Position numbers and translations under genes: made by a program
The notes under the pieces: model-generated
The model's database searches: none
Seen by the model: only the letters and a program-made list of their open reading frames with translations
Told to the model about the DNA's origin: nothing
IMG/VR virus record: IMGVR_UViG_3300013372_001213
From: an uncultured virus (IMG/VR IMGVR_UViG_3300013372_001213)
Taxonomy: Duplodnaviria > Heunggongvirae > Uroviricota > Caudoviricetes
Strand: one strand, 5' to 3'
Length of the DNA: 56,307 bases
Shown: one piece after another, positions 1 through 54,973 of the stretch
Position numbering within the stretch: position 1 is the stretch's first letter
Layout: every line of letters starts with the position of its first letter

Positions 1-102
1 ATTTGATTCCATTCTTTAGGTAGACTAGCTCTAAGCTAATCTACCACAGTGAATGTTACTGGTGGGTTCTTACGAATGAAGTATACCCACAAAACCTTAT
101 GC

Positions 103-157
103 ATTGCCTATATTTATTTCTAGGTATTTCGTCTCCTATAAGACTCATCAGGGCAAT
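103..157 (-). ncRNA. Type I hammerhead ribozyme
   Basis: Minus strand reads AUUGCC-CUGAUGA-GUCU(UAUAGG)AGAC-GAAA-UA(CCUAGAAAUAAA)UAUA/GGCAAU: intact core, 6-bp stem I, 4-5-bp stem II, short stem III, AUA cleavage triplet (cut between 109 and 108). Confidence 0.85.
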
Positions 158-432
158 TAGATTAGACCATAATCTTCAGGATTCTCCAACATATTCATGC
201 CCATATAGTAGGCTACTTGTTGGTTGATATCATTAATTGCCTTATCTTGTAAAGCAACTAACTCTTCTCTGATTCTTGTGGTTAGTATGAGGTCACCTGT
301 ATTCATAAATCCTTTTCTTAGGACAGTACCAACAGGTGGTATCTCAATTTGGTAAAGGTCAGCATCATGCTGTATACCTAAACATTTAAGAGCAGTGATA
401 GCTCTAACTGTTGCATCTTTAAAATCTTCCAT
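157..432 (-). CDS. Hypothetical protein (MEDFKDATV...)
   Basis: Track ORF 157..522; start moved to ATG at 432, which follows an AACCAA-rich leader and avoids the structured element at 476-561. Confidence 0.75.
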   Translation of the reverse strand: MEDFKDATVRAITALKCLGIQHDADLYQIEIPPVGTVLRKGFMNTGDLILTTRIREELVALQDKAINDINQQVAYYMGMNMLENPEDYGLI

Positions 433-475
433 TTCTTTTGAGTTGGTTTTTAGATTGGTTAAACTTATATAAATT

Positions 476-561
476 ATCCTAAGCACTTGGTTGTAACCTG
501 TGTTTGTTATACAGGAAGTCATTGCTTTTATATAGCATTTACAACCTTGTGCATTAGGAAT
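476..561 (-). ncRNA. Structured element copy A (three-way junction)
   Basis: AUUCCUAAUGCACAAGG-UUGUAA...UUACAA-CCAAGUGCUUAGGAU closing stem with two internal hairpins (UGCU/AGCA, CCUGU/ACAGG). Confidence 0.7.
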
Positions 562-620
562 TTAAATCTATACTCTTTCTTTGTTCTTTGGTATGTATTG
601 ATTAGTATTTCACCAGTTTT

Positions 621-733
621 ATCCTAAGCACTTGGCTATAATTGCCTATACAGATTAATTTCTGTAGGATAGGTTTCATATACCACGCTTGGTATACTAC
701 TTTTTTACAATCATAGCCTTGTGCATTAGGAAT
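621..733 (-). ncRNA. Structured element copy B (three-way junction)
   Basis: Same 17-nt and 15-nt ends as copy A; different inner stem (CUAUGAUUG/CAAUUAUAG) and different hairpins (UAUACCA/UGGUAUA, UACAGA/UCUGUA). Confidence 0.7.
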
Positions 734-734
734 G

Positions 735-1046
735 TTATTCATACCCTTGATTATCAGGGATATTTTCTCCATGAAAGTCATCATATTCTTTTAACTTTTC
801 AGGAGATATAGTAGCTCTATGCTCTTTAATCTGTTTTTCTAATGAACAGATAAGAGCTCTTTGTTCATCAACCCACCATCTATATTCAAGATTTTCTTGA
901 TAACTATCAGATACATCTTCTATATCTTCCGAAGATAACTGAGGCGGTCCTGTCATTATTAACTCTGATATAGCTGTGCTTAATTCAGAGTTTAATCCAT
1001 CTAACCAAGTTAGTGGGTGTGATTCAGCTGTGATTTCTATTTCCAT
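735..1046 (-). CDS. Hypothetical protein
   Basis: 103-aa ORF with AACCAA/A-rich leader. Confidence 0.8.
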   Translation of the reverse strand: MEIEITAESHPLTWLDGLNSELSTAISELIMTGPPQLSSEDIEDVSDSYQENLEYRWWVDEQRALICSLEKQIKEHRATISPEKLKEYDDFHGENIPDNQGYE

Positions 1047-1082
1047 TTTTTTTAATTGGTTTTTGGGTTGGTTAGTATTATA

Positions 1083-1160
1083 TTACTTATCTCCTATATT
1101 AGGCATAAAGATAGATTCATCATCTTGCCATATATAGTCTTCTAAATATTCTTCATCCAT
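1083..1160 (-). CDS. Small acidic peptide (MDEEYLEDYIWQDDESIFMPNIGDK)
   Basis: 25-aa ORF filling the gap between two co-oriented genes, with an A-rich leader; not in the ORF track. Confidence 0.5.
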   Translation of the reverse strand: MDEEYLEDYIWQDDESIFMPNIGDK

Positions 1161-1171
1161 TGTTTTAAGAT

Positions 1172-1363
1172 TTAAAGGGTTTTTAACTGTTTTTTTAAAA
1201 ATTCATAGTACAATGTCTTTGGTATGAAGTAGGCTGAGTTACCAAACTTAGCAAAGTCTGCTAAGCTTGTATGTTTATCAAACCAAGGTTCATCCATAAT
1301 TTCCTGAGTTTCAGGCCATTGAACTAATACATATTCAAAATGTGTTGGGTCATCTACTTGCAT
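1172..1363 (-). CDS. Hypothetical phage protein (LVQWPETQEIM..PWF motif)
   Basis: 63-aa ORF with A-rich leader. Confidence 0.75.
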   Translation of the reverse strand: MQVDDPTHFEYVLVQWPETQEIMDEPWFDKHTSLADFAKFGNSAYFIPKTLYYEFLKKQLKTL

Positions 1364-1399
1364 AGTTTATAATTTAAAAGATTAGTATTCAGTAAATTG

Positions 1400-1522
1400 T
1401 TATAACAAGACAGGAGTTAGTTCAGAGGTTTGGTAGAGATAGTATAATGACTATTCATTGTTAACCCAATTAGATGAGTTTAACCCTATGGAACATAACT
1501 AACTCAAGGTGTCTTATTATAA
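1400..1522 (-). ncRNA. Candidate structured RNA / leader
   Basis: 13-bp outer stem UUAUAAUAAGACA/UGUCUUGUUAUAA (G-U pair on minus strand) plus 9-bp GAGUUAGUU/AACUAACUC. Confidence 0.5.
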
Positions 1523-1557
1523 ATTTCAAAGCTGCGGTTTCTCTCCTATTGACACAT

Positions 1558-2104
1558 CTATATATAGTATCCTATATAGTAATAGATATAATAGTAAAGA
1601 TAGTAATAGTATAGGAGAGAGATATGGGGTATAAGTCTTTAGCTATATTAACCCCTGTTGAAGACTGAATGTATTAATTTGAGGGTTATATGTTGGTAAT
1701 GAAGGAGTTAGAGGTAGGACAGTCCCACTCAATGACCCTTTCTTTTATATATTTTGGGTATAATTACCTTTAATGTTGGTTATCCTACCCACCCTTATAG
1801 TCTCTTTATACCTATATATATAGTATAATACCCTATATAGTATATAAGATAACATTTATAGGTAGAGACATATACCATCAAAGACTTAACTAACTGATAA
1901 TCAGCACTAGACCTGATACCCCTTCGGGGCTTAGTATCAATTATCTACATATATAGTATATAGTAAAGTGCTACTTGTCCACCGGTGGGAGACAAACCTA
2001 TATTTCTTAACTCATTGATTATTAATCAGTTAATTTTTATTGGTCTACTTTCTCCACAGGCTGGAGACAACTTTTATCAGCTAGTCCTGTTGCCCCTTCG
2101 GGGC
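1558..2104. repeat. Non-coding repeat-rich region, possible replication origin or control region
   Basis: Several TATATAGTA-type repeats, two CCCCTTCGGGG hairpins (about 1919 and 2093), imperfect direct repeat 1971-1995 / 2045-2070, palindrome CTGATAATCAG near 1895. Confidence 0.45.
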
Positions 2105-2130
2105 CACAATCTTTTAACCACAGTATAAGT

Positions 2131-2169
2131 AAAAAAAAAAACAACAGAGGTATTAACCCCTGCTGTTTT
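2131..2169 (-). terminator. Intrinsic terminator
   Basis: AACAGCAGGGG/CCUCUGUUGUU hairpin followed by a U tract, downstream of 2178..2495. Confidence 0.85.
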
Positions 2170-2177
2170 ATATTCTA

Positions 2178-2495
2178 TTAGAATACATCTACCTTTGCTA
2201 AGTCTGCAAAGCTCAATGTGCTCACAGTCTTATCAGTATACACACCTGTCTTATGTACCATCTTAAACTCCGGTGCACCATCATTGGGTGTAAAGTCACT
2301 GATACTAAGACCTTCAATGTTGTCCATACCAATGTTGGTAATGCCTGTGGCTAAGACATATCTCTTGTCTTTGGTGTCTACACCAAAATACTTACCTGTC
2401 TTGTCTGTGTTATCAATTACTTTAATGATAACTTTGTTTTCAATCATATAGTTTGCTAATGATTGGGTGTTTGCGAATGAGCCTGTATTTGCCAT
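2178..2495 (-). CDS. Hypothetical protein (cassette 7)
   Basis: 105-aa ORF between promoter motif and terminator. Confidence 0.85.
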   Translation of the reverse strand: MANTGSFANTQSLANYMIENKVIIKVIDNTDKTGKYFGVDTKDKRYVLATGITNIGMDNIEGLSISDFTPNDGAPEFKMVHKTGVYTDKTVSTLSFADLAKVDVF

Positions 2496-2565
2496 TTGAG
2501 TAGGTGATAATGTATTTTACATAATATACAACCTTGTATATTAATTAACATTATCAATCTAAAAA

Positions 2566-2605
2566 ATGGGTTACAAAAAGAAATCAGGTTAAAAAAAGAA
2601 ATCAG
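2566..2605 (-). promoter_or_regulatory. Repeated cassette promoter motif (doubled)
   Basis: CTGATTTCTTTTTGTAACCCAT at 2566-2587 plus a second partial copy at 2587-2605. Confidence 0.7.
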
Positions 2606-2646
2606 TAAGGAGCAACAGTCCATGTCCATGTCCATGTCTATAAAGA

Positions 2647-2679
2647 AAAAAAAGAAGAGGCTATAAGCCCCTGTCTTTT
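2647..2679 (-). terminator. Intrinsic terminator
   Basis: AAGACAGGGGC/GCCUCUUCUU hairpin plus U tract. Confidence 0.75.
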
Positions 2680-2681
2680 AG

Positions 2682-3005
2682 TTAGATACAATCCACAGTT
2701 TCTTTGGGTACATCAAATTTTCCCCAGTCTTCATTAGCACAAGCTTCTATCAAAAACCTTTCCTGTATAAATTCTATACAAGCTTCAACAGCATCAGCTG
2801 AGGTTTTGTCTGTGCTCTGTGCTATCTTTAATAACTGGTTTACCAAAGGGTCTACCACATTATATGTAGAAGCATAAACTAATTTCTTAGCATAATCATT
2901 TAGCAATTTCTTTGCTAAGCTAGCAGGCATTACTGCTAAGTCTTGGTTTTCTACAACAAAGTCCATTGCCTTGTTAACTGTAAAGTCTAATGTTACATTT
3001 TTCAT
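2682..3005 (-). CDS. Hypothetical protein (cassette 6)
   Basis: 107-aa ORF between promoter motif and terminator. Confidence 0.85.
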   Translation of the reverse strand: MKNVTLDFTVNKAMDFVVENQDLAVMPASLAKKLLNDYAKKLVYASTYNVVDPLVNQLLKIAQSTDKTSADAVEACIEFIQERFLIEACANEDWGKFDVPKETVDCI

Positions 3006-3033
3006 AATAGATAGTTTTTAAGTTTGAGATTAA

Positions 3034-3057
3034 TAATGGGTTACAAAAAGAAATCAG
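3034..3057 (-). promoter_or_regulatory. Repeated cassette promoter motif
   Basis: CTGATTTCTTTTTGTAACCCATTA, 28 nt upstream of the ATG at 3005. Confidence 0.7.
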
Positions 3058-3088
3058 AAAAGAAAAGACAGAGCTATTGCTCTGTCTG
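3058..3088 (-). terminator. Intrinsic terminator overlapping stop codon
   Basis: AGACAGAGC/GCUCUGUCU hairpin plus UUUCUUUU. Confidence 0.8.
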
Positions 3089-3283
3089 GTTCTCTGCTGC
3101 ACTTAGTTGATCTTCAATGTAGCTTTGAAGATAGTCTCTGAATTTTTCAAGACCCCAAGATTCATTGCCTATAGCCTGTGCAGTTTCAAAACTCAATGTG
3201 CTATCATTTCTGATAGTTTCAGAGTTCATACTGATTTCAGCATCAAGCATCTTGATGATTTGCATTACTGTTGTTGTGTCCAT
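3074..3283 (-). CDS. Hypothetical protein (cassette 5)
   Basis: 69-aa ORF between promoter motif and terminator. Confidence 0.8.
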   Translation of the reverse strand: MDTTTVMQIIKMLDAEISMNSETIRNDSTLSFETAQAIGNESWGLEKFRDYLQSYIEDQLSAAENQTEQ

Positions 3284-3304
3284 AGTTTATATATTTAAAG
3301 TTAA

Positions 3305-3327
3305 TAATGGGTTAAGATAGAAATCAG
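3305..3327 (-). promoter_or_regulatory. Repeated cassette promoter motif
   Basis: CTGATTTCTATCTTAACCCATTA. Confidence 0.7.
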
Positions 3328-3357
3328 AAAAAAAAGAGAGATATACTCTCTCTTTTT
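3328..3357 (-). terminator. Intrinsic terminator
   Basis: AAAGAGAGA/UCUCUCUUU hairpin plus U tract. Confidence 0.75.
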
Positions 3358-3358
3358 A

Positions 3359-3565
3359 TTACAGTTCATATCTACTGTTGAACTGTTCTTGTGTAACCTG
3401 GTCTGTAGGTATACACAAGTTAAAAGCAACTTCTTCCACAAACTCCTGATTATCAGGGTTATGGATATTGTCAGCCCATTTGGGGCATGCATCTACACTA
3501 ATGTGTTTTCCTACTGAGCAACTAGCTAGTGTAAGAGCTGTTGCAATGATTAGTAATTGTTTCAT
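3359..3565 (-). CDS. Small lipoprotein (cassette 4)
   Basis: MKQLLIIATALTLASC signal peptide with lipobox. Confidence 0.8.
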   Translation of the reverse strand: MKQLLIIATALTLASCSVGKHISVDACPKWADNIHNPDNQEFVEEVAFNLCIPTDQVTQEQFNSRYEL

Positions 3566-3585
3566 AATATATAGTTTAAGTTAAA

Positions 3586-3606
3586 TGATGGGTTATAAGA
3601 AATCAG
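3586..3606 (-). promoter_or_regulatory. Repeated cassette promoter motif
   Basis: CTGATTTCTTATAACCCATCA. Confidence 0.65.
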
Positions 3607-3611
3607 ATTAC

Positions 3612-3645
3612 AAAAAAAGATAAAGGGCATAAAGCCCTATATCTT
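3612..3645 (-). terminator. Intrinsic terminator
   Basis: AAGAUAUAGGGC/GCCCUUUAUCUU hairpin plus U tract. Confidence 0.8.
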
Positions 3646-3835
3646 ATTCCAAATGTCCATTGGGTTTATCATAGTCCCAATTGTTTCTTTCTATAATAGA
3701 ACCATTAGGTGCCATTACATATGTTCCTTCACACTTATATACATAAGGTACATATTGTTTAACAGATGCTTCAACTATGTTACTATTGTTCACATAGTTA
3801 GGTGCTTGCACAAACCCAAAGATTTTATTTTCCAT
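3644..3835 (-). CDS. Hypothetical protein (cassette 3)
   Basis: 63-aa ORF between promoter motif and terminator. Confidence 0.8.
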   Translation of the reverse strand: MENKIFGFVQAPNYVNNSNIVEASVKQYVPYVYKCEGTYVMAPNGSIIERNNWDYDKPNGHLE

Positions 3836-3852
3836 TGATAGTTTAGGTTCAA

Positions 3853-3876
3853 TAGTGGTCTAAAAAAAGAAATCAG
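3853..3876 (-). promoter_or_regulatory. Repeated cassette promoter motif
   Basis: CTGATTTCTTTTTTTAGACCACTA. Confidence 0.65.
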
Positions 3877-3891
3877 AAACACACAGTAGAT

Positions 3892-3920
3892 AAAAAAAAT
3901 AAGGGGATAACCCCTTATTT
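3892..3920 (-). terminator. Intrinsic terminator overlapping stop codon
   Basis: AAAUAAGGGG/CCCCUUAUUU hairpin plus U tract. Confidence 0.85.
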
Positions 3921-4202
3921 ATGCTTGGCAATTAGGTCATAGAGATAGTTCTTAACTCTTGAGTTAAGAGTAAATCTACCACCAAACAGAACTCTGGTTT
4001 CTTCCTTATTAACGTGGAAGGCTAAGTCTTCCTTTAAGTCAGGTAAAACCTTTCTGAACTCCATTACAATCTTTCTTGCAGAATCTATCTTGCAAGAAAA
4101 TTTAATATCATAATAGTCAGTGTCTTTAATAGGTAATGCTTTACCATAAGCTTCAATTGAATTAAAATATTCAAGAGCTGTGTTGTGATTGTAAGTTTTC
4201 AT
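3915..4202 (-). CDS. Hypothetical protein (cassette 2)
   Basis: 95-aa ORF between promoter motif and terminator. Confidence 0.85.
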   Translation of the reverse strand: MKTYNHNTALEYFNSIEAYGKALPIKDTDYYDIKFSCKIDSARKIVMEFRKVLPDLKEDLAFHVNKEETRVLFGGRFTLNSRVKNYLYDLIAKHK

Positions 4203-4230
4203 AAGTTTAGGTTTTAAGGTTTAATGTCAA

Positions 4231-4254
4231 TAAGGGTCTATAAAAAGAAATCAG
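4231..4254 (-). promoter_or_regulatory. Repeated cassette promoter motif
   Basis: CTGATTTCTTTTTATAGACCCTTA. Confidence 0.65.
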
Positions 4255-4268
4255 ATTACATAGTAGAT

Positions 4269-4299
4269 AAAAAAAAGAACAAGCCTAAGCTTGCTCTTT
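4269..4299 (-). terminator. Intrinsic terminator overlapping stop codon
   Basis: AAAGAGCAAGC/GCUUGUUCUUU hairpin plus U tract. Confidence 0.8.
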
Positions 4300-4554
4300 A
4301 TTTTTATTGTTAAGTACATATATAGGTATCAAGTATCTAACAATCATTCTATGATCATCATTAGTACTATATATATCACCATCCATAAAGTATGGAACAA
4401 AGGAGAACTTAACAGCTACACTATCTATCATCACAATACCTTTTATACCTTTACAGTCTTGGATATTGTTGATGATATAAGGACTTGCTTCAAAGCAAGT
4501 CATACCAGTTGTTACTTCATTGATGTTGTCACACAAGATTACTTCTATTTTCAT
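4285..4554 (-). CDS. Hypothetical protein (cassette 1; MKIEVILCD...)
   Basis: Track ORF 4285..4617; start moved to ATG at 4554, downstream of the promoter motif as in the other cassettes. Confidence 0.8.
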   Translation of the reverse strand: MKIEVILCDNINEVTTGMTCFEASPYIINNIQDCKGIKGIVMIDSVAVKFSFVPYFMDGDIYSTNDDHRMIVRYLIPIYVLNNKNKEQA

Positions 4555-4581
4555 AAGTTTAGTTTTTAAGTTTGATGTCAA

Positions 4582-4605
4582 TGATGGTCTAGAAAAAGAA
4601 ATCAG
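4582..4605 (-). promoter_or_regulatory. Repeated cassette promoter motif
   Basis: CTGATTTCTTTTTCTAGACCATCA. Confidence 0.65.
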
Positions 4606-4932
4606 AACACACAGCATGTTCTTCTGTGAGAAAAATCTTTTTTTGTAGCCTAGTTTTGGAAATGCTAGCTCAGAGCATGGGGGGTAGGGGCTTCAGGCAC
4701 TGGACCCGGGGGGGTTGTTTTATAAGACCCCACTCCTTCTCACATATATATTCCAACCCCCACCTATATATTTACTCCCCCACCCAAAGTCTTCCTCCCC
4801 CAAGATTGTAACCCACAAACTATTGTTGAAAACTTTATGATTGTTTCTCTACATACCTATGAGATCTTGTTGTATCTTTATATCCAGATTGTTTGATTGC
4901 TCTCTGATTGTTTTGATTTCAAGGTTCACATC

Positions 4933-4959
4933 AACCCCTATAGAAATGTAGGGGTTTTT
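4933..4959 (+). terminator. Intrinsic terminator
   Basis: AACCCCUAU/GUAGGGGUU hairpin plus U tract. Confidence 0.65.
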
Positions 4960-4990
4960 GTTTTATATATATATTATGTGTATATTAGTA
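4957..4990 (+). promoter_or_regulatory. Bacteroidota-like promoter variant
   Basis: TTTG(4957)-N20-TATATTAGTA(4981) upstream of the amidase. Confidence 0.55.
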
Positions 4991-5009
4991 GCAACTAAAA
5001 AACTTATAT

Positions 5010-40811: not shown

Positions 40812-41834
40812 ATGGGATTTAACTACACACTAAAATATAGAACCTTTGATCAATTACTTGATGATGTTCAAGTAGATTTTCAAAACCTAACATTGCAAAA
40901 TATGATAGAACCTCAACAACTTATTAAGGTTGTTAAAAGAGTCAGTAATGATTTAGGTTTAAGAATCTTTATGACTAAAGAAACTTTACTTGAGGTTAAT
41001 AAAGGTAGAGTAAAACTTCCTGATAGTTTCCATGTATTAAACTATGCATTAGTTTGTGATGATGTAGTAGTAAATGAACCAGTTATTCAAGGTACTAATA
41101 TTCAAGAAATAAATGTAATACCTACTTACAAAGAAACTCCTGCAATTATTGATGTATGTACACCCCCTACTGTTAATTGTAGATCTTGTGGTGTACCTAC
41201 TAATACATGTGCATGTCAAACTAATCCTTCTAATTGTGAAGTATTACCTTCTGGTCAACAGTACTGCTCTAAACCAAGATTACAGATGAACTGTAAAGGA
41301 GATGTTTATGAGTTAGTTCAGGTAGTTAAATCTCAAGAAAGAACCTTTAGAAGATTATGGCCATTACAATTACTTACTAATGACCAGACTATAGATTGTG
41401 GTTGCCCTAACTTATACATAAAGACTCCTCAACAAGCTTGGATTAGAGATAACTATTTTTATACAAACTTTGATGATGCTAAAATCTATATTAGTTACCA
41501 AAGTACATTAGAAGATGATGAAGGTAACTTACTAGTAGTTGATCATGATCAGATTAATGAGTACTATGAGTATGCTGTAAAAGAAAGAATACTTGAGAAC
41601 TTGTTTATGAATGATGAGAATGTTTCAGCTAAGTTACAACTAGTTCAACAGAAACTAAGAGTAGCAAGAAACTATGCTAAGTCTTATGTTAATACTCCTA
41701 ACTTTATGGAGATGAAACAGTTATGGCAAGCTAATAGAAAAGCTCAGTATGGTAAGTACTATGATCAGTTTAAATCATATCCTTGGAATCAAGCTTTTAA
41801 TATTAATGTAGAAGGTCAAATGAATAGATACTAA
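40812..41834 (+). CDS. Putative tail ring (tubular) protein with Cys-rich insertion
   Basis: KLP..F, YFYTNF..A.IYISY and D.EG.LLV motifs. Confidence 0.75.
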   Translation: MGFNYTLKYRTFDQLLDDVQVDFQNLTLQNMIEPQQLIKVVKRVSNDLGLRIFMTKETLLEVNKGRVKLPDSFHVLNYALVCDDVVVNEPVIQGTNIQEINVIPTYKETPAIIDVCTPPTVNCRSCGVPTNTCACQTNPSNCEVLPSGQQYCSKPRLQMNCKGDVYELVQVVKSQERTFRRLWPLQLLTNDQTIDCGCPNLYIKTPQQAWIRDNYFYTNFDDAKIYISYQSTLEDDEGNLLVVDHDQINEYYEYAVKERILENLFMNDENVSAKLQLVQQKLRVARNYAKSYVNTPNFMEMKQLWQANRKAQYGKYYDQFKSYPWNQAFNINVEGQMNRY

Positions 41835-44800
41835 TGGCACAAGAAGAACAAAATACCAGCAGTGGTCAAGTAAGAAGTTTTGATAAAGCTTTAAATGAAG
41901 ATGTTAATGATTTTCATTTACCTTCCAATGAATGGACCCAGGCAAGGAATGCTATTAATAATTCTGTAACTGGTGATTTAGGAAAACTTGGTAATGAACC
42001 TGCTAATCTTAAATGTGTTGAGATAGATTACCCAATCATAGGTACTATTCATGTCATTGAAGATAAATGGTTATTGTACTCTACAGACTCTCTAGGTAAT
42101 TGTGAGATAGGTTTATTTAAGGAATCAACATGTTTATATGAACCACTTACTATTGATCCATGTCTTGGTTTTAAATTAGAAAATTTAATCATTGGTGTAT
42201 GTAGACCAACAAGTACTTGTACCTATATAGCATATTGGGATGATGGTATAAATCCATCAAGAAGAATGGAATTTGATGCTGACTTTATTGATAATATTCC
42301 TATAATAAATCCTAACCTATCTACTGATCCTAACAGTACATTACCTTGGGTACAAATAGATACAACACCTTTAGGTCCTTGTCATACTTTTGAAAACACT
42401 CCTGTTCTAGATTGTGATAAATTAAGATTAGCTTTATTCATGGACCCAATATGTCCAAGAGTTGAAAAAGGTGTTAGTGGGGGTAACTTACTTAATGGTT
42501 CTTACTTAGTAGCAATGGCCTATGCAATCAATGGTCAGAAAATAAGTGATTGGTATGTATCAAATGCTCAAGGATTATTTGATCATAATAATAGTGCATC
42601 ATCATTAGATGTATTTATTGATAGTATAGATAATAGATATGATGAAATTATAGTAGCTACCATTGCAATTATAAATCAACAAACAGTTGTAAGACAAGCT
42701 GGTTATTATAGTACAAGACAAACTAGATTAAGTTTTGATACAATATTTGATACATGGCCTGCTATTCCTATTGAGCAAATTCCTATCATGACTCCTATAG
42801 TAGATAAGTCTGATGCTATGTACAATGTAGGAGATTACTTGTTAAGGGTTGGTCCTACCTCAAAGTTTGATTTTAACTATCAACCATTAGCTAACCAGAT
42901 AGTAACCAAATGGCAATCTATAGAATACCCTGCTGACTACTATAAAAAAGGCGGTAATCAAGTAGGATACATGAGAGATGAAGTATATGCTTTCTTTATT
43001 CAATGGATCTATGATACAGGTGATAAGTCTGCTTCATATCATATACCAGGAAGACCTCCTTTAGTTTATGCTCCCTTAGCACCTCTTGTAGACAATAGTC
43101 CTTTTTTTGGAACTAACTCTTTACCTGGAGACTCAATGGTATTTGAAACATTTAATACAGCTCAAGCAATAGGTGGAACTTTATCTATTCCTCAACCAGA
43201 TGGAGGGGTTTTAATCAGAGAAGGTTTAATGGGATATTGGCAATCTACTGAAATTTACCCAGATAACAAATCAGAAATATGGAATGCTAGTGATCCTTCT
43301 CATCCATGGAGTGCAGTAACCGGAGCACCTCCTTATAGTACTACTAGTATTTTAGATTATGATCTTTGTGGTAAACCTATCAGACATCATAAATTTCCTG
43401 AAGATGTTTTAGCTGGTGCTAGTGAAACTAGATTATTTAATTCTGGTTCTGGAAACAGTATCAGAATAATGGGTGTTAAGTTTGAAAACATAAGAGCTCC
43501 TAAAGATAATGATGGAAATACTATTACTAATATTGTAGGATACAGAATATTAAGAAGTACTAGAAATGGTAATAAAACAATTATTGCCAAAGGTATAATT
43601 AATAATATGGGTAGATATCCTATACCAGGTAGTACTAAAGAAAGTTTATATCCTAATTATCCATATAATGATCTTCAACCAGATCCATTTTTAACACAAA
43701 ATGAAACACATACAAATGGTTTTGCTCAAGTTGTAGGGGGAGGTAATTCATTACAAAATTTTCAACAAAAATATTTAACTTTTCATTCACCTGATACAAA
43801 CTTTAATAATCCTTTTTTAGCTACTAAAGAATTAAAAATCTATGGTAATGTTTGGGGAGGTGTAGATGGTAAATATGATTTAGTTGAAAAACATCCTAAA
43901 GAAAAACTTATTACAAATCTAACTTTTATTATTGCTGGTATAGCTGGTATTGGTATAGCAGGTTTAGCAGCTAATGGTAAAAAAAGAACAACATATGCAA
44001 CTGCAAAAAGTAGTGGTGTAAGTGCTAGTATGGTACTAGCAGCAGGTAATGGTACACTTGTTCAACCAGATATTCTTACTGGTCAAGCTCTTATATATAA
44101 TTCACTTATGTTAGCAATATTAGGAACACTAAATACTGCTGATGCTGCTGCAAATGCTGGTGGTCTTGATACTTTATCAGCTGCTGGAGGAGTATCCTCT
44201 ACTGCTAGACTTAGAGCTCAATTACTTACTGCTGCAGGTACAGCTGCCGGTCTTCTTAATGGTACAGGAATTGATTATAAAGTTGAACAAGAAGATGGTT
44301 ATTTAGCAGGTTTAGGTGGAACATTAGGTGGGTTTGCTGGTATTCCTTTATTTTTAAATTATTTTACTGATGGTACTGATAGTATAATTAGGTTAGTAAA
44401 AGCTATTATTAGATATAGAGATTTTGCTATAAGATATCATTCTCATGGTTATTATAATAATTTTGATGGACCTCCCCCTAATTTTAGATTTAGTATAGAT
44501 AAACAAATATATGTTAATCCTGAAATAGCTGAGTTTGAACCAAATTTGCAAATTAATAATTTATATAGAAATAGAACTGTAGTTTTAAATACTGCAGGAT
44601 CAGTTCCTCCTCCTGCTAAAACAGATCTTACAAGATATGATTCTACTAAAATACTTACTGGATTTTGGCCTACAGATCCCATTACAGGTGTACCTAGAAT
44701 TACTATAGATGATTTTTGTTCTAAATATATAAAAGGAACTGATACAGTAGATGGTGCTAATGGTCAAATATGCTCTTCACATTATACAGGAATAAAAGTT

Positions 44801-46969
44801 AGAATAAAAAATCAATATAGTCAACTAGCTAATATTGTTCAGTTACCTACTGATTCATGTTATGAATCTGTAGTATTTAATAACCTAGGTGAATTTGTAG
44901 ATATTAATAATCCAAGCACTGTTTTACAAAGTGTTTCTACAAAACCTTTATTTGGAGGTGATGTTTATATAAACAGATATACTGAAAAAAATACTTTTTT
45001 ATTTTTCTATGATTGGTTAGAAGGACAACCTGATGGTGCACAATTTAACTACCTTCAACATAAAATGGCTCCTTACCCTAAATACTGGGCTAATTTTAAT
45101 GACTTTCAAACTAGTGATTTTACAACAAGTTTTATTAATACAGTTTTAAATCCTTCAGCATGGTCTTCTATTTTTACTAGCCCTGGACAAATACTTACTC
45201 CTAGTGATTTTTATGCTTTAGACGGACCTTCTTTTGCAGCAAATATAACCAATATAAGATTTGATGTTAGAGGTTGGTTTTATTTATTTAATTCTGGTGT
45301 AAGAGATTTCTTTGTAGAATCAGAAATCAATGTAGCTAATAGAGATTATGGTGAATTACAAGCTGAAAGATTTTATGATCCATATCAAGGAGGTGATACC
45401 AAAACTTTATTTGATACTGCTATTATCAAGTCTGGTAACTATTATAAATATGATATATCATTAAGTACAACTAAACTGTTTACTAATTATACATCATGGG
45501 GTGCTACACAATCTCCTCAGTATAATCCTTATATAGCAGATACTTGTTTTATATACCAACCTAAAAAAGTAATTTACTCTTTACCTTCACAATTTGAAGG
45601 TCTTAAAGATGGGTGGAGAATCTTTTTAACCAATAACTATTATAACTTTTTAAATATTGTAACTTGTATTAAACCTATTAATAAAAGTGGTGCTTTAATC
45701 TTTTTTGATTCTGCTAGCCCTGTACAGTTCCAAGGTACTGACCAATTACAAACAGGTCTAGGTACCAAACTTACTATTGGAGATGGTGGTTTATTTTCTC
45801 AACCAGTACAAGCTGTAGTTAATGTAGAGGCATCTCATGAATATGGATCTTGCCAAAATAGATTAAGTGTTATTAATAGTCCTGCAGGTGTATATTGGAT
45901 AAGTCAAAACCAAGGTAAAATCTTTACATTAAGTGGAGAAGGTATTAAAGAACTATCTACTGTTAATATGAAATGGTGGTTTGCTAGTTACCTACCTTAT
46001 CAGATTGTTAAAGACTTTCCTAATTTTAGTTTACTTGATAATCCTGTTATAGGAGTTAGTTGTCAATCAGTATATGATAACCAAAATGGTTTATTGTACT
46101 TCTGTAAAAAAGATTATAGTCTTAAAAAAGATGTTGATGAAACATTACAATATATACCAGGAACTAATAAGTTTTTAGTATTCCCTATGCAGACTACTGT
46201 TGAACTAGGAGATCCTTTATATTTTGAAGATGCCTCTTGGACTGTAAGCTTTGACCCTAAAACAAATGCTTGGTTATCTTATCATGATTGGCACCCAACA
46301 TTTAACATGCCGGGTAAAAATACCTTTATGACAGTTAGCCCTGATGATAAAAAAAGTATATGGATTCATAATGAAAGATGTGATTTTTATTGCAACTATT
46401 ATGATAAAGATTATCCTTTTGAAGTAGAGTTTACTGTTAACACTATTCAAGATGTTAATTCTTTAAGAAGTATTCAGTATATAATGGAGTGTTATAAATA
46501 TGCTCCTAATTGTTATGATAGATTCCATGTGTTAGATTATAACTTTGATGAGGCTACTATCTATAACACAGAACAAACTTCTGGGTTATTAAAACTTGTG
46601 GTAAATCCAAAAGAAAATCCTAATGCTATATTGCAGTATCCTATTATTAATCCTACAAACATTAATATACTTTTCTCTAAAGAAGAAAACAAGTATAGAT
46701 TTAATCAGTTCTGGGATGTTACAGATGATAGAGGAGAATACTATAATCCATTAATTCCTGGCTTTGCTGAAAGAGCAGTTTGGGATACACAACCTAATGG
46801 GTATGTAAGAATACTTAATGCTAATAACTTAAACTATGATAAAGAACAACTGCAAAGAAAGAAGTTCAGGCATTACACTGTCTCTGTTCTACTAAGAAAA
46901 CTAGTCTCTGGCAATAGAAAGATGATGGTAATGTTAGCAGATGTTAAAAACCTTTTATCCCCAAGATAA
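41834..46969 (+). CDS. Tail stabilization / muzzle protein
   Basis: 1711 aa; LGNEPAN, GYMRDEVYAF, FGGDVYI.RY, YGSCQ and WTVSFDP....WLSYHDW.P motifs. Confidence 0.85.
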   Translation: MAQEEQNTSSGQVRSFDKALNEDVNDFHLPSNEWTQARNAINNSVTGDLGKLGNEPANLKCVEIDYPIIGTIHVIEDKWLLYSTDSLGNCEIGLFKESTCLYEPLTIDPCLGFKLENLIIGVCRPTSTCTYIAYWDDGINPSRRMEFDADFIDNIPIINPNLSTDPNSTLPWVQIDTTPLGPCHTFENTPVLDCDKLRLALFMDPICPRVEKGVSGGNLLNGSYLVAMAYAINGQKISDWYVSNAQGLFDHNNSASSLDVFIDSIDNRYDEIIVATIAIINQQTVVRQAGYYSTRQTRLSFDTIFDTWPAIPIEQIPIMTPIVDKSDAMYNVGDYLLRVGPTSKFDFNYQPLANQIVTKWQSIEYPADYYKKGGNQVGYMRDEVYAFFIQWIYDTGDKSASYHIPGRPPLVYAPLAPLVDNSPFFGTNSLPGDSMVFETFNTAQAIGGTLSIPQPDGGVLIREGLMGYWQSTEIYPDNKSEIWNASDPSHPWSAVTGAPPYSTTSILDYDLCGKPIRHHKFPEDVLAGASETRLFNSGSGNSIRIMGVKFENIRAPKDNDGNTITNIVGYRILRSTRNGNKTIIAKGIINNMGRYPIPGSTKESLYPNYPYNDLQPDPFLTQNETHTNGFAQVVGGGNSLQNFQQKYLTFHSPDTNFNNPFLATKELKIYGNVWGGVDGKYDLVEKHPKEKLITNLTFIIAGIAGIGIAGLAANGKKRTTYATAKSSGVSASMVLAAGNGTLVQPDILTGQALIYNSLMLAILGTLNTADAAANAGGLDTLSAAGGVSSTARLRAQLLTAAGTAAGLLNGTGIDYKVEQEDGYLAGLGGTLGGFAGIPLFLNYFTDGTDSIIRLVKAIIRYRDFAIRYHSHGYYNNFDGPPPNFRFSIDKQIYVNPEIAEFEPNLQINNLYRNRTVVLNTAGSVPPPAKTDLTRYDSTKILTGFWPTDPITGVPRITIDDFCSKYIKGTDTVDGANGQICSSHYTGIKVRIKNQYSQLANIVQLPTDSCYESVVFNNLGEFVDINNPSTVLQSVSTKPLFGGDVYINRYTEKNTFLFFYDWLEGQPDGAQFNYLQHKMAPYPKYWANFNDFQTSDFTTSFINTVLNPSAWSSIFTSPGQILTPSDFYALDGPSFAANITNIRFDVRGWFYLFNSGVRDFFVESEINVANRDYGELQAERFYDPYQGGDTKTLFDTAIIKSGNYYKYDISLSTTKLFTNYTSWGATQSPQYNPYIADTCFIYQPKKVIYSLPSQFEGLKDGWRIFLTNNYYNFLNIVTCIKPINKSGALIFFDSASPVQFQGTDQLQTGLGTKLTIGDGGLFSQPVQAVVNVEASHEYGSCQNRLSVINSPAGVYWISQNQGKIFTLSGEGIKELSTVNMKWWFASYLPYQIVKDFPNFSLLDNPVIGVSCQSVYDNQNGLLYFCKKDYSLKKDVDETLQYIPGTNKFLVFPMQTTVELGDPLYFEDASWTVSFDPKTNAWLSYHDWHPTFNMPGKNTFMTVSPDDKKSIWIHNERCDFYCNYYDKDYPFEVEFTVNTIQDVNSLRSIQYIMECYKYAPNCYDRFHVLDYNFDEATIYNTEQTSGLLKLVVNPKENPNAILQYPIINPTNINILFSKEENKYRFNQFWDVTDDRGEYYNPLIPGFAERAVWDTQPNGYVRILNANNLNYDKEQLQRKKFRHYTVSVLLRKLVSGNRKMMVMLADVKNLLSPR

Positions 46970-49900
46970 TGAATAACGGTAAAGATATAAGAAAAGCTCA
47001 AAGGAATATTAAAGCAGGCAAACCTGTTTCTAATCCTTATAAAGATGATGTAATCTATAGTAATCTTGGTCAGTGGAAGTATCCAGGCCAGGTAACTAGA
47101 ATTCCTAGTAATCAAATTACTATGCAAGGTGTTCCTTATCCTGTACAAGGTGTAGATGATACAGGTTATTCTCAGATGATGTACCCGGGTATGGACTATC
47201 AGTTTCCTGGTCAGTATGTTACAGAGTATCCTATGGCTAGATATGGAGGAGGTTTACCTAGAGCACAAGATGGTTTTAATAATTATGAAGCTGATCTTAT
47301 ATCTAAAGTATTAATGAATAGAAACAAAGATAAAGACTTTGTTAAAAGAGCTTATGATGTAGGAGCTTATCCAGATTCTAATATGTTTACTAGACTAGAT
47401 GATAATGAGTTTGGTCAAAGAAATTCTCATCTAATGGAATGGGGAGAAGATGATTCTGGACAAGCTTGGATGTATCCAAGTGTAATGAATCCAACAAATG
47501 AAGCTATAAAAGTTCCTAATCAATATGCAGATTATATATCTTCTGAAGGATATAAAAAAGCTACAGGAATGATTCCTGAAAAACCTTTTGGAGGACAGAA
47601 TACTAAGACTCATACTCACATGGCTAATGGAGGATGGTTAGATCAATATCAACCAGGTGGTACACCAAAAACTAGAACAGATATTTATACAGATAAAGAT
47701 TTATATGATAAAGCTTATAAAGCTGAACAAGATAGTGCAAAGTTATATGAGGGATATCTTAAAAATATTGAAGGTAAAAAGAAGACTTACTTTGAACCGC
47801 CTCATATGAAGCCTCAGCTGGTAGAGACAGGTAAAATGAAAAATGGGTTGCCTGTACTAAAAGAGATTCGTCAAAGTAGTATATGGGGTCATGAAAATGA
47901 CAAAATAAAACCTATAGGTACACAATGGGTTAGTGAAAAGTATAATGACATAATAGGTTATGATGAAAATGGTAATCAGATAGGAGGACTAAGTGTGTCT
48001 AATGAAGCTGGTTATAATGCATATAAAAAACCAGTAGTACATAATGTATATCAACCACCTCCACCAGAAGAAGAACCTATTAAAGATACTATCCCATATA
48101 AACCCAAACCAAAGTCAATTAAATCAGATACCATAAGACAATGGAACTTTAATGGTCCTAATCCTGTAATGGAATATTATGATAAAGCAGGTAAACCTTT
48201 ATATCAAGAATATTTTAAAGATATGAATGATTTTGCAAAAGGTAAAAAAATAGAACCTATTATTATAAATAATCAAACATCTAAAAAAGTTGAAGCAAAA
48301 CTTGTTAATAAAAAAGAAGGTGGATGGTTAGATGAATTACCTGAAGCTCAACTAGGAAAAATTGTTAAGGCTGGTTTAAAAGGTGTTAAAAAATTAAATC
48401 CTGTTAGAATTGCTGATAAGGTAGTTCCACAAGTAGGAGGATTATTAAATCCTGCTGTATTAATGGGAGTGGAAGATATGAATGCAATGAGCATGAGTCC
48501 TTTAAATTGGATTCCTGGATATGGAAAAAAATTAAAAGGAGAAGGACAAGCTTTTAGAAAATTTGGTAATGATTTACAACATGTTAAAGATGCACAAGTA
48601 TTAAGTCCTGCAGGAGGTTCTAAATTAAGAATAGGTAGAGATCAAATAGTAAGTGAAGGTAATTGGGCACAACCTAATCAAGTAAATAACTCATATCCTG
48701 GTGTATTTGAAGCAACAATAAATCCACAAGTAAAAGGTACTAATTTAAATTATAAAGCCATACATAATAGAAATGGTGTTCTTATAACAGATGCAAAAGG
48801 TCAAAATTTACCTGAAATTCCTATTAGTGATCCAGGACTTTCTTTTAATAGAAGATTACCTTTTTCTAATAGATATGTACCTATTAATAAAGAAAAATTA
48901 ATTAAAAAAGAATTTGATTTAGCAAGAACTGCACCCCATCTTCAAAGCTTAGCTGAAAAAGCATTAGGTGCTGCAGGTGTAATAGCTGTTCATGATTACA
49001 TACAAGGAGATGATAAATCTGATTGGTTCCCACAAATTAAAAATCAATTAGATAAATCTTATAATAAAGTTAGTAAGTATGTAGGACCTTATCTACCTAA
49101 AGAAGAAGATGGAGGAAATATACAACAAGCTCAAATAGGTGCTATAGTTAAAGCAGGATTAAAAAAAGTTATTAAAAGTCAAAAACCTGTTATAAAAAAG
49201 ACTATTGTTAATAAAAAATATGTAATGCCTTCTAAAGAAAAAATAAAAGATTTACATGGATTTATACCAAGAAGACAGTTTGTAAAAGAAATACAAAAAG
49301 AAGGTTTAATTGGTAAAGATTTTAAAGATTTAAATTATGCAGCTAGCTCTACAGAAAAAACAAATGCTTTAACAAAACTAGCTTTAAATAGAGATGCTAC
49401 ACGTTATAGAGGGGTAGCTGGTAGTGTTCCTGAGAATGGTATTTATCAACAACAATCATCTCCTTATGGAACATTTGATATGACAAAACCTGGATATGGT
49501 AATGATATATCAGCATTTGAACATATGAAAAATGCTGGAGTAGATCTTAATGATCCTATATCAATTGCAAAGTATCAAGCAAGTCATATACCTATGCATA
49601 AGTATGAATATAGATCTGGTATGCCTCGCATGAATAATGTAGATGCTTTATATTCTGGACATGCTCCAACAGGCTATGGTAATTATCAAATTAAAATGAC
49701 TTCTCCCAGAGATTATAGTGAAGGTAATTATATAGATTGGGTTAAAAAATATCATAATCCTAAAAATAATCTTCAAGATTTAGCTGTAAAAGATGGATAT
49801 TATATAAAAGATTTTGTACCTAATACTTCTTATGAAATGCCTATTGGATTAAGTAAAACTGATTTAACTACTGTAGTAGGAAAAAGAGGTCAAAAAATGT

Positions 49901-52467: not shown

Positions 52468-52485
52468 TTTTTGTATATTTGTATT

Positions 52486-54969
52486 ATGACTAAAGAAGAA
52501 ATTTTAAATGGTATGTCAGAAGAAGAGTTCTATGACATGTATCCAGATCAAGAAAGTTGGGAGAACACTCAACAAATGAAACTTGGTGGTTTAAGTGGTG
52601 CCCCACATAATGGTCAACCTACTGCAAGACAGTTCTTTAATTATGGTTCTCATGTTAATGATGGTTTAAATATACCAATGAGTAATCCTTTTTATTTAGC
52701 TCATGGTGGAACTTACTATGGAGGTCCTACTAGACCTTATGATATGGGTGGTAATACAGCTTCTCCTATGAACTATGGAGCATTTAGTATACCAATGCAA
52801 TATGGTGGGTATGAACAAGAATATGGTGGAGTAATAGATCCAGGTAATAACCAAGATTATCCAATACTAGAACAAGGTGGTAAAGCTGCATTAATGAGTA
52901 TTATTAAAGCTCATTCTAAAAAAATGAAAAATGCTTATAAGAATGGTGGTGACACAGTCATGCAAGGAGGTAACTCTGATGATTATCCTACTACCCTAAC
53001 AAATACTTTTAAAAACATTCTTAAGCAAAACATCCAAAATCATATGATCAATGAAGAAGAGAAAAACTTCTCTAATGAAATGATGCAGATGGGAGGATAC
53101 CAAGGCCAAGGTATGAATTATGGTGCTACTAATTTTAATGAAACTAATGCACAGAATGCATCTTTAGCAAATATGTACCAACAAAGAATAGGTGCTACCA
53201 AGGATAACTTAAGTAATGACTTTAGTAATTTAGGTAATGCTACTAGTTATTTAGGATATACTGCTAACCCTTATCAAAAGACTAGTGTTAAAGCAAAATA
53301 TGGTGCTATTTTACCTAAAGCTCAAAAGGGTCTTACTTCTCCTAATAAAGGAGAAACTCATTCTGAATGGGCTAAAAGAAATAACATACCTGGTGGAGGT
53401 TGGAATGGAGCTACTTTAGGTAATAAAACTTGGAATGGTACATCATGGGAAGGTGAAGATGATGCAAATACTACAAAAGATGACTCTGAATATAATAAAT
53501 ACTTTGGAGAAAATAGAACAAGTACAAGAGGTATGGATTATGCTCCTATGAATTATAATCCTTATAATAAGATATCTAAAGATGATGTAGCTAAATTAAA
53601 ACAAGTAGCAGCTACTCCTACTACTGGATGGAAACTTAAAGAGTTTAATCATAAACACTTTGGTCCATGGGGTAAAACTAATATGAAATTTGGGTATAAG
53701 GATATTTCAAATAAAGATTTTTATGAAGATAACATGAAGATGAAAGATATACCTGGTACAGAATCTAATTCCATGCAGAATAATAATAATCAAAGTAATG
53801 ATCAAGGTAATGACCCTTATGCTGATTATAAATATAACCCTTATAATCCTGCATCACAAAATCCTAGAAATACAGAATCATGGTTTAATAAAATGAAAAC
53901 TGTAATGGGGGATAAAAGAAATAATACTCCAAAAGAAGATTTTCAAGGAGAGTCTTGGTTTAGCAGATATAAAGGTATGAAAGCTGGGCAAAGAGAAGAC
54001 AGAAATAGATTAAAAAGATTAGAAGAACAAGATAGACAAGTAGGTCCTTATGTAAGTCCTGAAGAAGAAATGGCTTATGGAGGATTAACAAGAGCTCAAT
54101 ATGGTGTAGATCATAAAAGTACTAATCCAGCAGATGGTCTTTATGATAATGCTGGTAAAATGCTTGATAGTGAACCAAATAGTATGAACCCTGTTAAAAT
54201 GGAATCTATTAGTGCATTACCTGCATTTAGCAATTCTGTAAATGAACAAGGTCTTAAATTAAAAAAAGAACAAGAACATTTAAAAGATCCTGAAACTGGT
54301 TCTATGTACACAGGTCCTGATAAAGAATTAGATGTTACTACAAAAAATAGACCTGGGTTTGATAGAGAAGCCATGGCTAATTGGAGTATAGCAGGAATTA
54401 ATACATTAGCAGGTGGTCTTGAACAAGGTCAAAATGCTAAAAATCAAAAACAACTTTCTAACCTACAACTAGCAGATAATGCATTTATGGCTACTCCAGC
54501 TAATGCTCAAAGTAGAGGTGACTATGATCCTAACTCAGGAATGTTTAGAATGGATCAAATGAATCCTGTTCAATTCCCTGGAGGTATAGGGTATAGTGCT
54601 TATGGTGGGGCTATGTATCAAGAAGGTGGTATGCAAGAAGAAATGCAAGCTTCACCTCAACAAGCTCAACCAGATCCTCAACAAATTATGGAAGGTGTTG
54701 CTGCAATGTTACAACAAGGTGCACAACCTGAACAAATTGCTCAACAGTTAGTTGAAATGGGTATACCTCAAGAACAAGTAATGCAAATTATTCAAGCTGT
54801 AATGCAACAAATGCAAGGTGGTCAAGAACAAGCTATGCAACCAGCAATGAGATATGGTGGTTATGCTATGGGTGGTTATCAAGATGAAGATTCTTATGAA
54901 GATGATTTAGATGAAGATGAGATTGAAGAATTAAAAAGACAAGGTTATAATGTAGAATATTTAGATTAA
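52486..54969 (+). CDS. Low-complexity cargo protein rich in YGG/MGG motifs
   Basis: Start moved from TTG 52471 to ATG 52486, after a TATATTTG box at 52474; Q/M/G-rich with acidic C-terminus. Confidence 0.8.
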   Translation: MTKEEILNGMSEEEFYDMYPDQESWENTQQMKLGGLSGAPHNGQPTARQFFNYGSHVNDGLNIPMSNPFYLAHGGTYYGGPTRPYDMGGNTASPMNYGAFSIPMQYGGYEQEYGGVIDPGNNQDYPILEQGGKAALMSIIKAHSKKMKNAYKNGGDTVMQGGNSDDYPTTLTNTFKNILKQNIQNHMINEEEKNFSNEMMQMGGYQGQGMNYGATNFNETNAQNASLANMYQQRIGATKDNLSNDFSNLGNATSYLGYTANPYQKTSVKAKYGAILPKAQKGLTSPNKGETHSEWAKRNNIPGGGWNGATLGNKTWNGTSWEGEDDANTTKDDSEYNKYFGENRTSTRGMDYAPMNYNPYNKISKDDVAKLKQVAATPTTGWKLKEFNHKHFGPWGKTNMKFGYKDISNKDFYEDNMKMKDIPGTESNSMQNNNNQSNDQGNDPYADYKYNPYNPASQNPRNTESWFNKMKTVMGDKRNNTPKEDFQGESWFSRYKGMKAGQREDRNRLKRLEEQDRQVGPYVSPEEEMAYGGLTRAQYGVDHKSTNPADGLYDNAGKMLDSEPNSMNPVKMESISALPAFSNSVNEQGLKLKKEQEHLKDPETGSMYTGPDKELDVTTKNRPGFDREAMANWSIAGINTLAGGLEQGQNAKNQKQLSNLQLADNAFMATPANAQSRGDYDPNSGMFRMDQMNPVQFPGGIGYSAYGGAMYQEGGMQEEMQASPQQAQPDPQQIMEGVAAMLQQGAQPEQIAQQLVEMGIPQEQVMQIIQAVMQQMQGGQEQAMQPAMRYGGYAMGGYQDEDSYEDDLDEDEIEELKRQGYNVEYLD

Positions 54970-54973
54970 TACT

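Follow-up and report, generated by a model that had tools for sequence, protein, structure and literature searches.

The early region of an uncultured viral genome encodes, on its minus strand, two tandem copies of a structured RNA element, which most likely derives from the twister ribozymes although it is not a member of that class, and which would work at the DNA level like the joints of the promoter-early stem-loop (PeSL) cassettes. Both copies lie between positions 476 and 733 of the IMG/VR record IMGVR_UViG_3300013372_001213, of which the whole stretch of 56,307 nucleotides that was analysed is referred to here as the window. Taken in its entirety, the reading that the element is a disarmed twister descendant which serves as a boundary stalk and as a crossover site is assigned a probability of about 0.6 on the basis of sequence comparisons. 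The purpose that self-cleaving ribozymes serve in the genomes of phages and bacteria is little understood. An intact form, intermediates and a disarmed yet selected form at the same gene positions would constitute a natural loss-of-catalysis series, which could allow the cut and the fold to be separated in the job of the ribozyme, and could show whether a protein nuclease took over the cut. It further suggests that early-gene shuffling in crAss-like phages has a driver so far overlooked, and that these phages carry a hypervariable RNA cargo; if the element is only a relic, the series would provide a neat example of ribozyme decay. No description of a disarmed phage twister was found in the literature searched, which was chiefly that available without subscription.

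Genomic setting and fold of the two copies

The window has a G + C content of 32 %, and a protein family scan identified a terminase, a portal and a major head protein among the proteins it encodes. The terminase shares 22–24 % identity with the terminases of Flavobacterium phages and of crAss-like phages from the gut, and the window appears to form part of an uncultured crAss-like phage with a host among the Bacteroidota. No tRNA or tmRNA was found in the window. Positions 1–4800 contain small minus-strand ORFs without a family match. The element is flanked by an upstream early ORF of 103 aa (735..1046, minus strand) and a downstream early ORF of 91 aa (157..432, minus strand), neither of which belongs to a known family. 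Copy A (619..733, minus strand), a closed stalk of 21 bp with 89 nt between its arms, starts 1 nt past the stop codon of the 103-aa ORF, and copy B (476..561, minus strand), with a closed stalk of 18 bp and 62 nt between its arms, ends approximately 45 nt ahead of the ATG of the 91-aa ORF. An in-frame upstream ATG inside copy B provides an alternative start for the latter, giving a 121-aa ORF (157–522). The end of the window lies 475 nt downstream of copy B. The 57-nt linker between the copies (562..618, minus strand) moves with copy A, as it is common to the related locus L333, where no second copy directly follows (window 735–561 corresponds to L333 2996–3168 at 95 %).

Both copies fold into a 6-bp helix, a bulged U, a 4-bp helix, an AA/AA loop, an inner stem of 11 bp (copy A) or 8 bp (copy B) and two inner hairpins. 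This is the fold proposed in a preliminary description made from the letters of the window, and its coordinates, minus strand and tandem arrangement are likewise confirmed. The predicted folding energies are -43.2 kcal/mol for copy A and -28.8 kcal/mol for copy B (z -6.78 and -5.33, respectively), and none of 200 shuffles folds as well as either copy on the minus strand. Copy B reaches a lower energy on the plus strand (-34.8) than on the minus strand.

By alignment with twisters, the 5′ arm of copy A (721..733, minus strand) corresponds to the 5′ strand of P1, the UAA cleavage loop and the 5′ strand of P2, and the 3′ arm (621..633, minus strand) to the 3′ strands of P2 and L1. The ancestral scissile U-A would lie at 728/727 (minus strand), as placed by analogy with the U-A site described in PMC5408937. 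The inner stem (634..718, minus strand; 718–708 paired with 644–634), the putative equivalent of twister P5, shows compensatory divergence and encloses a 63-nt interior with two hairpins. The same parts of copy B, all on the minus strand, comprise the 5′ arm (549..561; ancestral scissile U-A probably at 556/555), the 3′ arm (476..488), recognised by the arm match and the twister alignment, and the inner stem (489..546; 546–539 paired with 496–489), again equivalent to P5 and enclosing a 42-nt two-hairpin interior. It had been claimed that the inner stem differs entirely between the copies yet still pairs; the pairing stands, but five of the first eight positions are identical, with two pairs changed on both sides and one changed on one side. 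Each arm occurs exactly twice without mismatches in the 56 kb, all other matches having three mismatches, which is at chance level.

Comparison of the whole window against Rfam gave no match at the gathering score, and in the region 300–900 there were only chance matches (E 1.4 or worse). When the interiors were considered as guide or antisense sequences, the longest word in common with the rest of the window was 11–12 nt, and none was found outside the elements in the fetched loci. A hammerhead ribozyme in the interior of copy A was considered and rejected, there being no CUGANGA core before stem II.

Homologues and covariation of the closed form

Pattern scans of viral and metagenome contigs yielded twelve distinct elements of this closed form, including the two window copies, and L183 added two, so that fourteen distinct closed versions with nine interior types could be distinguished. 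The scans differed in yield: a loose 16-base pattern matched at least 119 loci in the viral contigs, with one real element among the 119 matches listed, two of the ten matches to a 21-base pattern were real, both in the same phage, and single-arm scans (104 and 11 loci) gained L184, L243 and later L183. The element was present in 0/80 terminase-linked loci, which lie far from the early region, and pattern searches of 50 whole records revealed no further closed form, the seven extra matches inspected being due to chance. Bacterial genomes gave no matches, then two partial matches without the stalk, and cultured phage records only 27-nt chance matches. Three loci (L332, L340 and L490) were considered as closed elements and rejected as chance matches or a CRISPR array. 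The array in L340 has about 70 repeats, and its likeness to the 5′ arm is judged a coincidence.

All stem cells of the twelve aligned elements are paired (207/207), and five pairs are changed on both sides: the inner stem accounts for three, and the other two are due to an indel in a single short variant. No shuffle matched this pairing and covariation (0/500), a count that is not to be read as a probability, since the aligned elements are related and the structure was derived from the same sequences. The inner strands of each element pair with one another at 8/8 positions versus a mean of 7.25 in 132 crossed combinations, of which 69 also reach eight. Covariation among homologues had been put forward as the check on the proposed structure, and it is what these elements display. 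On the gene strand, six G-U pairs versus no A-C pairs occur across the twelve elements, which points to the gene strand as the RNA strand. The original choice of the minus strand is thereby upheld, together with the direction of the genes; folding energy does not discriminate between the strands.

L183 (1915–2171) has two closed forms back to back. One is eroded, shares its interior with L335 and has compensatory changes, on both sides, at two positions of the 4-bp helix (P2); the other is long and lacks the bulged U. From the compensation in P2 and the loss of the bulge it follows that the duplex is kept, more than its exact letters. The conserved ends of the preliminary description are thus real as shared arms but are not invariant, with the L183 copies and the short L337 variant deviating. 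L333 and L338 contain, in other contexts, copies of 95–97 % identity to copy A, and a version with two differences from copy A is found, again in another context, in a freshwater metatranscriptome contig (run X1), which as an assembly is no proof of transcription; in the metatranscriptome of run X2 the element region is uncovered. The interior of copy B recurs in L341. These data support a conserved, covarying and strand-specific structured RNA without an Rfam family.

Behind the closed element of L184, three tRNA-like frames with acceptor-like and T-arm-like ends and different inserts were observed (1150–1280, 1435–1555 and 1645–1812). ARAGORN called no tRNA in L334, which overlaps these frames.

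A longer, twister-like form in related phages

Beside the closed element in L341 and L344 there is a longer, open form, which shares its UAAUGCAC start, inner stem and AGUGC with the closed one and has an additional hairpin as well as an AGAGGG tail, the two forms lying within a few hundred bases of each other. The open form recurs upstream of DUF2828 genes, and its loci comprise L424–L543, L345–L363, L341 and L344. Its layout matches that of the twister as set out in PMC5408937, with P1, a U-A step in L1, P2, P4 with L4, T1, T2 and an optional P5. The open form is of a twister-P1-like type that lacks P3 and carries a P5 insert that is large and hypervariable. A twister descriptor, the letters of which were in part presumed, gave 14 hits in 11/24 DUF2828 loci and one in eight element loci, with none in 80 terminase loci, in the window or in 554 kb of shuffles; of the eleven descriptor hits in 20 fetched regions, two were unrelated and due to chance. 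Four variants of the T1 pair occur (CCC/GGG, CAC/GTG, CCA/TGG and TCC/GGA), T1 pairing being demanded by the descriptor itself.

A scan with the 5′ half only recovered at least 120 open-form loci, and among the matches listed the unqueried 3′ half is present in 114/124 of the 5′ halves. P4 is fully paired (5/5) in 102 of the 107 distinct open forms among these matches, and P1 (3/3) in only 53/107. The inserts range from 17 to 313 nt (19 to 313 nt in the scan with the 5′ half) and, among the matches listed, are nearly all different, while the base of P5 is conserved in sequence. P1, P2, P4, L1, L4, T1 and T2 are all found in the open form, with compensatory changes. The putative identity of this parent as a twister draws on the partly presumed descriptor and on covariation; the Rfam twister models (RF03160) matched none of the supposed parent forms, including those of five records (0/5). 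Among annotated twisters, P3 is given as present in 78 % and P5 in 1 % (PMC6154101), and P5 is described as having no consensus (bioRxiv 10.1101/2024.07.11.603121). The absent P3 and long P5 may explain why the open form is missed by Rfam, and it may already figure among the natural twisters in the supplement of PMC11662667.

Likely descent of the closed form and loss of catalytic parts

An alignment of the window copies, an intermediate and two twisters is in register throughout, with one clean gap of 21–22 nt over P4/L4. Kept in the window element are UAAUGCAC, the P5 stem and the AGUGC of the open form, while UUAGG is found where the open form has AGAGGG. By this replacement, the UAA cleavage loop is paired off and the G after P2, which we take to be the twister general base, is replaced by U. 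In twister, G45 is described as the base and A7 as the acid (PMC6154101), and pseudoknot defects are reported to reduce cleavage (bioRxiv 10.1101/2024.07.11.603121). Of the twister parts, the window element has P1 and P2, with P1 lengthened by L1 pairing. There is no P4 with L4 (the gap, and no L4-like word), there are no T1 or T2 pseudoknots, both of which require L4, and the Rfam twister models give no match; L1 is not open, with the scissile U-A Watson-Crick paired and U at the position of the catalytic G. Judged by these features of its sequence, the window element fails as a member of the twister class. It resembles the type P1 twisters with optional P5 (RF03160; PMC5408937) in its frame of P1, UAA, P2 and P5, which has the same order and letters, and in its intergenic position on the gene strand. 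Unlike these it is without P4, L4, pseudoknots, an unpaired L1, the G after P2 and an Rfam match, and P5, which is given as present in 1 % of annotated twisters (PMC6154101), is the conserved part here.

Intermediates were found in L478 (3604–3724) and L358 (3144–3305), in which P4 is kept, L4 has collapsed to four bases and the tail is still open. The intermediates and the closed form have a TCC before TAA in common, which occurs in 0/121 open forms among the matches listed, and L478 also shares A for G before AGUGC, where 118/121 of the open forms among these matches have TGA. GGGAT is the commonest twister 3′ end (37/121 among the matches listed). Further copies in L358 and L359 are decayed twisters, with collapsed L4 or eroded 5′ side and an intact P5 stem.

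When the P5 strands, which had not been used in fishing, were scored with matrices from 107 open forms, both strands reached p < 0.01 in 6/12 closed elements, two scores that are not independent, the strands being complementary. These include copy B (p 0.0008 and 0.005), while the scores are poor for copy A (p 0.25 and 0.046) and for five further closed elements. The same genes are also found behind either form: the DUF2828 gene is preceded by the closed form in L341 and by a twister in L345, with DNA that is 91 % identical, and the 103-aa ORF is preceded by copy A in the X1 contig and by a degenerate twister in L341. Profile searches linked the forms in neither direction, as a profile HMM of 81 whole open twisters did not find the window copies and a covariance model of the closed form found no twister or intermediate in 99 loci. 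Among the 117 interiors in the matches listed, no closed-form interior matches an open-form one. On the basis of the alignment, motif scores and intermediates, the closed element very probably is a descendant of a phage twister-type ribozyme. The new ribozyme that had been suggested would instead be a known class minus its catalytic parts (gap over P4/L4, zipped L1). The earlier failure to match a known family holds in that the element is Rfam-negative and not a twister member, but its twister descent appears traceable.

Arms as putative recombination joints

Within the set of related loci, 12/36 alignment ends fall within 10 nt of an arm versus 2.2 % of the sequence, a count that is inflated by the choice of loci for containing the element. 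For example, the 5′ arm of copy A is where the window ceases to be homologous to L337 and L341. On the far side of this arm, L341 has the copy B interior ahead of another gene, an arrangement that recombination between the two 5′ arms would give. L337 and L342 have exactly the 89-nt element in common, at 100 % identity, with different directly flanking sequence on both sides, and the window and L338 have exactly copy A in common. The place of the 91-aa ORF is taken by other genes in L337, L341 and L342, and the 103-aa ORF lies upstream of an element in the window, L337 and L341 and downstream of copy A in the X1 contig. Single-linkage grouping of the 117 interiors of open, intermediate and closed forms among the matches listed gave 102 families, with none inverted.

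At the DNA level, the repeated arms would provide short-homology crossover sites, by which the interiors and neighbouring small genes are shuffled. It is likely, by analogy, that the arms act in this manner as do the PeSL cassettes of T4-type phages, which are described as shuffling genes in RB49/phi1 (PMC2839356). Both are repeated intergenic stem-loop units among small orphan early genes, with ends at gene insertions, deletions and replacements. Unlike PeSL, the element has neither a Bacteroidota-type promoter word nor a terminator U-tail, and combines a putative ribozyme ancestry with a large swappable structured interior. A promoter search at the element found no TAnnTTTG, phage-specific promoters lying outside the patterns used, and one 9/12 sigma-70-like match (738–710) that overlaps copy A, this count being below the shuffle mean. 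No terminator was called at the element.

Possible function of the stalk

The sequence comparisons show a duplex that is under selection at the RNA level, without the twister catalytic parts, at cistron boundaries and recombination joints. A twister-type ribozyme would have lost P4/L4 and had its cleavage loop zipped, leaving an irregular stalk of 18–30 bp with a variable top. This stalk is kept by compensatory changes on the transcribed strand, between small early genes. That the closed element no longer self-cleaves is highly probable in view of the parts it has lost. In the polycistronic early transcript, the stalk may still serve to mark a boundary. Its most likely role would be that of a substrate for host RNase III, with the cut placed in or close to the central AA/AA loop; the fallback would be a structure that stabilises an end.

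RNase III processes stalks between the early genes of T7-type phages. The closed element is like these in lying between cistrons and in forming an irregular duplex of some two helical turns, interrupted centrally by an internal loop, and unlike them in that it surrounds a multibranch top of 49–143 nt and is a predicted substrate. Across the twelve elements, the stalk measures 18–30 bp (median 21) and is broken by the bulge and a 2 × 2 loop, with 10 bp below and 8–11 bp above the central loop in 10/12; the stalks of copy B and L341 have just 18 bp. RNase III substrates are described as approximately 22 bp, with loops at the cut site permitting single-strand cuts (PMC3867540). Given a two-turn duplex with a loop at the cut site, the simplest story would be that a host nuclease now makes the former ribozyme cut. 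Cutting of the stalk by RNase III, for which the fit is one of geometry, is considered to have slightly less than an even chance. The processing site listed among the options of the preliminary description would thus be the leading functional guess, by geometric analogy.

Alternative explanations

A decaying ribozyme with no RNA-level job, in which the stem is the default fold of a twister derivative and repeat recombination spreads and homogenises the arms, would fit the frequency of twister decay in these phages (L358, L359 and L341), the rarity of the closed form (14 versions versus at least 120 twister loci) and its absence from bacterial genomes (two partial matches without the stalk) and cultured phage records. 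Such a relic is unlikely, as L1 could be closed only by coordinated substitutions, the changes that came later in P5 and P2 compensate one another, without a broken pair in 207 cells and with 6 G-U versus 0 A-C pairs, and the same stalk is found under nine unrelated interiors. There is also a small chance of an RNA-cassette system, in which a ribozyme-scaffold frame would display hypervariable structured cargo that is released from the early transcript, one lineage having switched from self-cleavage to a host double-strand nuclease; the closed form would then be an exapted ribozyme excising small cargo RNAs, possibly decoys for host RNA-sensing defence or ligands of a phage Ro60-like protein. 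The ancestral U-A step and its neighbours are conserved, and in L341 and L344 no more than a few hundred bases separate the closed form from a twister, which might reflect a novel type of active ribozyme or a split twister, of which the element would be one half and the other would be supplied in trans or by the core of a neighbouring twister. However, the U-A step is locked in a Watson-Crick helix, neither copy has an L4-like loop or AGAG tail, and no L4 word was found within one mismatch on the minus strand of window positions 1–5000, nor an exact one in four of four element-bearing records, which renders this very improbable. A partner could lie past the end of the window, 475 nt downstream of copy B. 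Hardly to be expected is an RNA anti-CRISPR that mimics a CRISPR repeat, or a DNA hairpin site of a dedicated recombinase. Of the first 13 nt of the L340 CRISPR repeat, 12 agree with the 5′ arm, but agreement falls to only 3–4 of the 16 positions that follow, the final 8 nt of the repeat have no counterpart, and twister descent would account for the same letters. The arms do mark rearrangement joints, but the single-stranded DNA recombination hairpin considered earlier is not supported as the site of a dedicated recombinase; against such a recombinase stand the lack of inverted interiors among the 117 in the matches listed and the lack of a recombinase among the 43 window proteins scanned, the window being part of a genome.

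With the disarmed twister descendant retained as the preferred reading, a ligand, gate or decoy akin to Y RNA would be a rather improbable role. The bulged basal helix would bind a phage Ro60-like (DUF2828/DUF7788) or host RNA-binding protein, and the top would be variable. Such a role is suggested by L341, where the element ends 35 nt before a DUF2828/DUF7788 gene, and where a model of the encoded protein (mean pLDDT 73) matches TROVE/Ro60 structures (Foldseek best E 2.6e-8). Y and YrlA-type RNAs, as described in PMC4201824, lie near Ro60 genes, and the element is like them in having ends paired into a bulged helix and a variable middle, with one copy beside a Ro60-fold gene. Unlike these RNAs, it has no GNCGAA motif in either copy, no tRNA-like domain and no consistent linkage to a Ro60-like gene: a same-strand Ro60 orthologue within 4 kb was found in L341 only, the window ending 475 nt downstream of the element. 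No DUF2828 match was obtained in four of four other element-bearing records (one 96 % complete and three fragments, in a search that gave no positive-control signal), and the closed form occurs in 0/24 DUF2828 loci, 20 of which have a different, Class-I-RNA-like hairpin. Furthermore, the bulge is missing in one L183 copy. The protein-binding decoy of the preliminary description may thus still apply, but is weakened by the variation in the bulge and in the sequence of the 4-bp helix, and by the 96 %-complete element genome without a Ro60-like match.

Other features of the loci and the window

In L345–L365 (e.g. L351, 3623–3731 and L355, 474–590), the stretch of approximately 500 nt upstream of the DUF2828/DUF7788 gene contains between one and three hairpins in which NNCAGCAA comes after a 6-bp stem. 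These resemble the Dictyostelium Class I RNA (RF01414) below the Rfam threshold (E 0.017–0.4), in features described in PMC7919456, where Class I RNAs are stated to be found in no organism other than Dictyostelium. The Class-I-like hairpins occur in 20/24 DUF2828 loci, 0/80 terminase loci and 0/15 element loci, and are likely to represent Y-like RNAs of the Ro60-like protein. In L350 (3116–3184), a Pistol ribozyme above the Rfam gathering score is found in the same leader as a twister-like RNA and a Ro60-like gene.

Within the window, positions 1400–2170 are poor in genes and contain recurring palindromes rich in TATA, together with a G + C-rich hairpin that is present twice (1907–1930 and 2081–2104). 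After these comes a strong terminator-like hairpin on the minus strand (2169–2138). Positions 41834–56305 are taken up by four ORFs of very large size (1711, 1832, 832 and at least 444 aa), and the first of these (1711 aa) is the only one with a PHROG match, to a virion structural protein.
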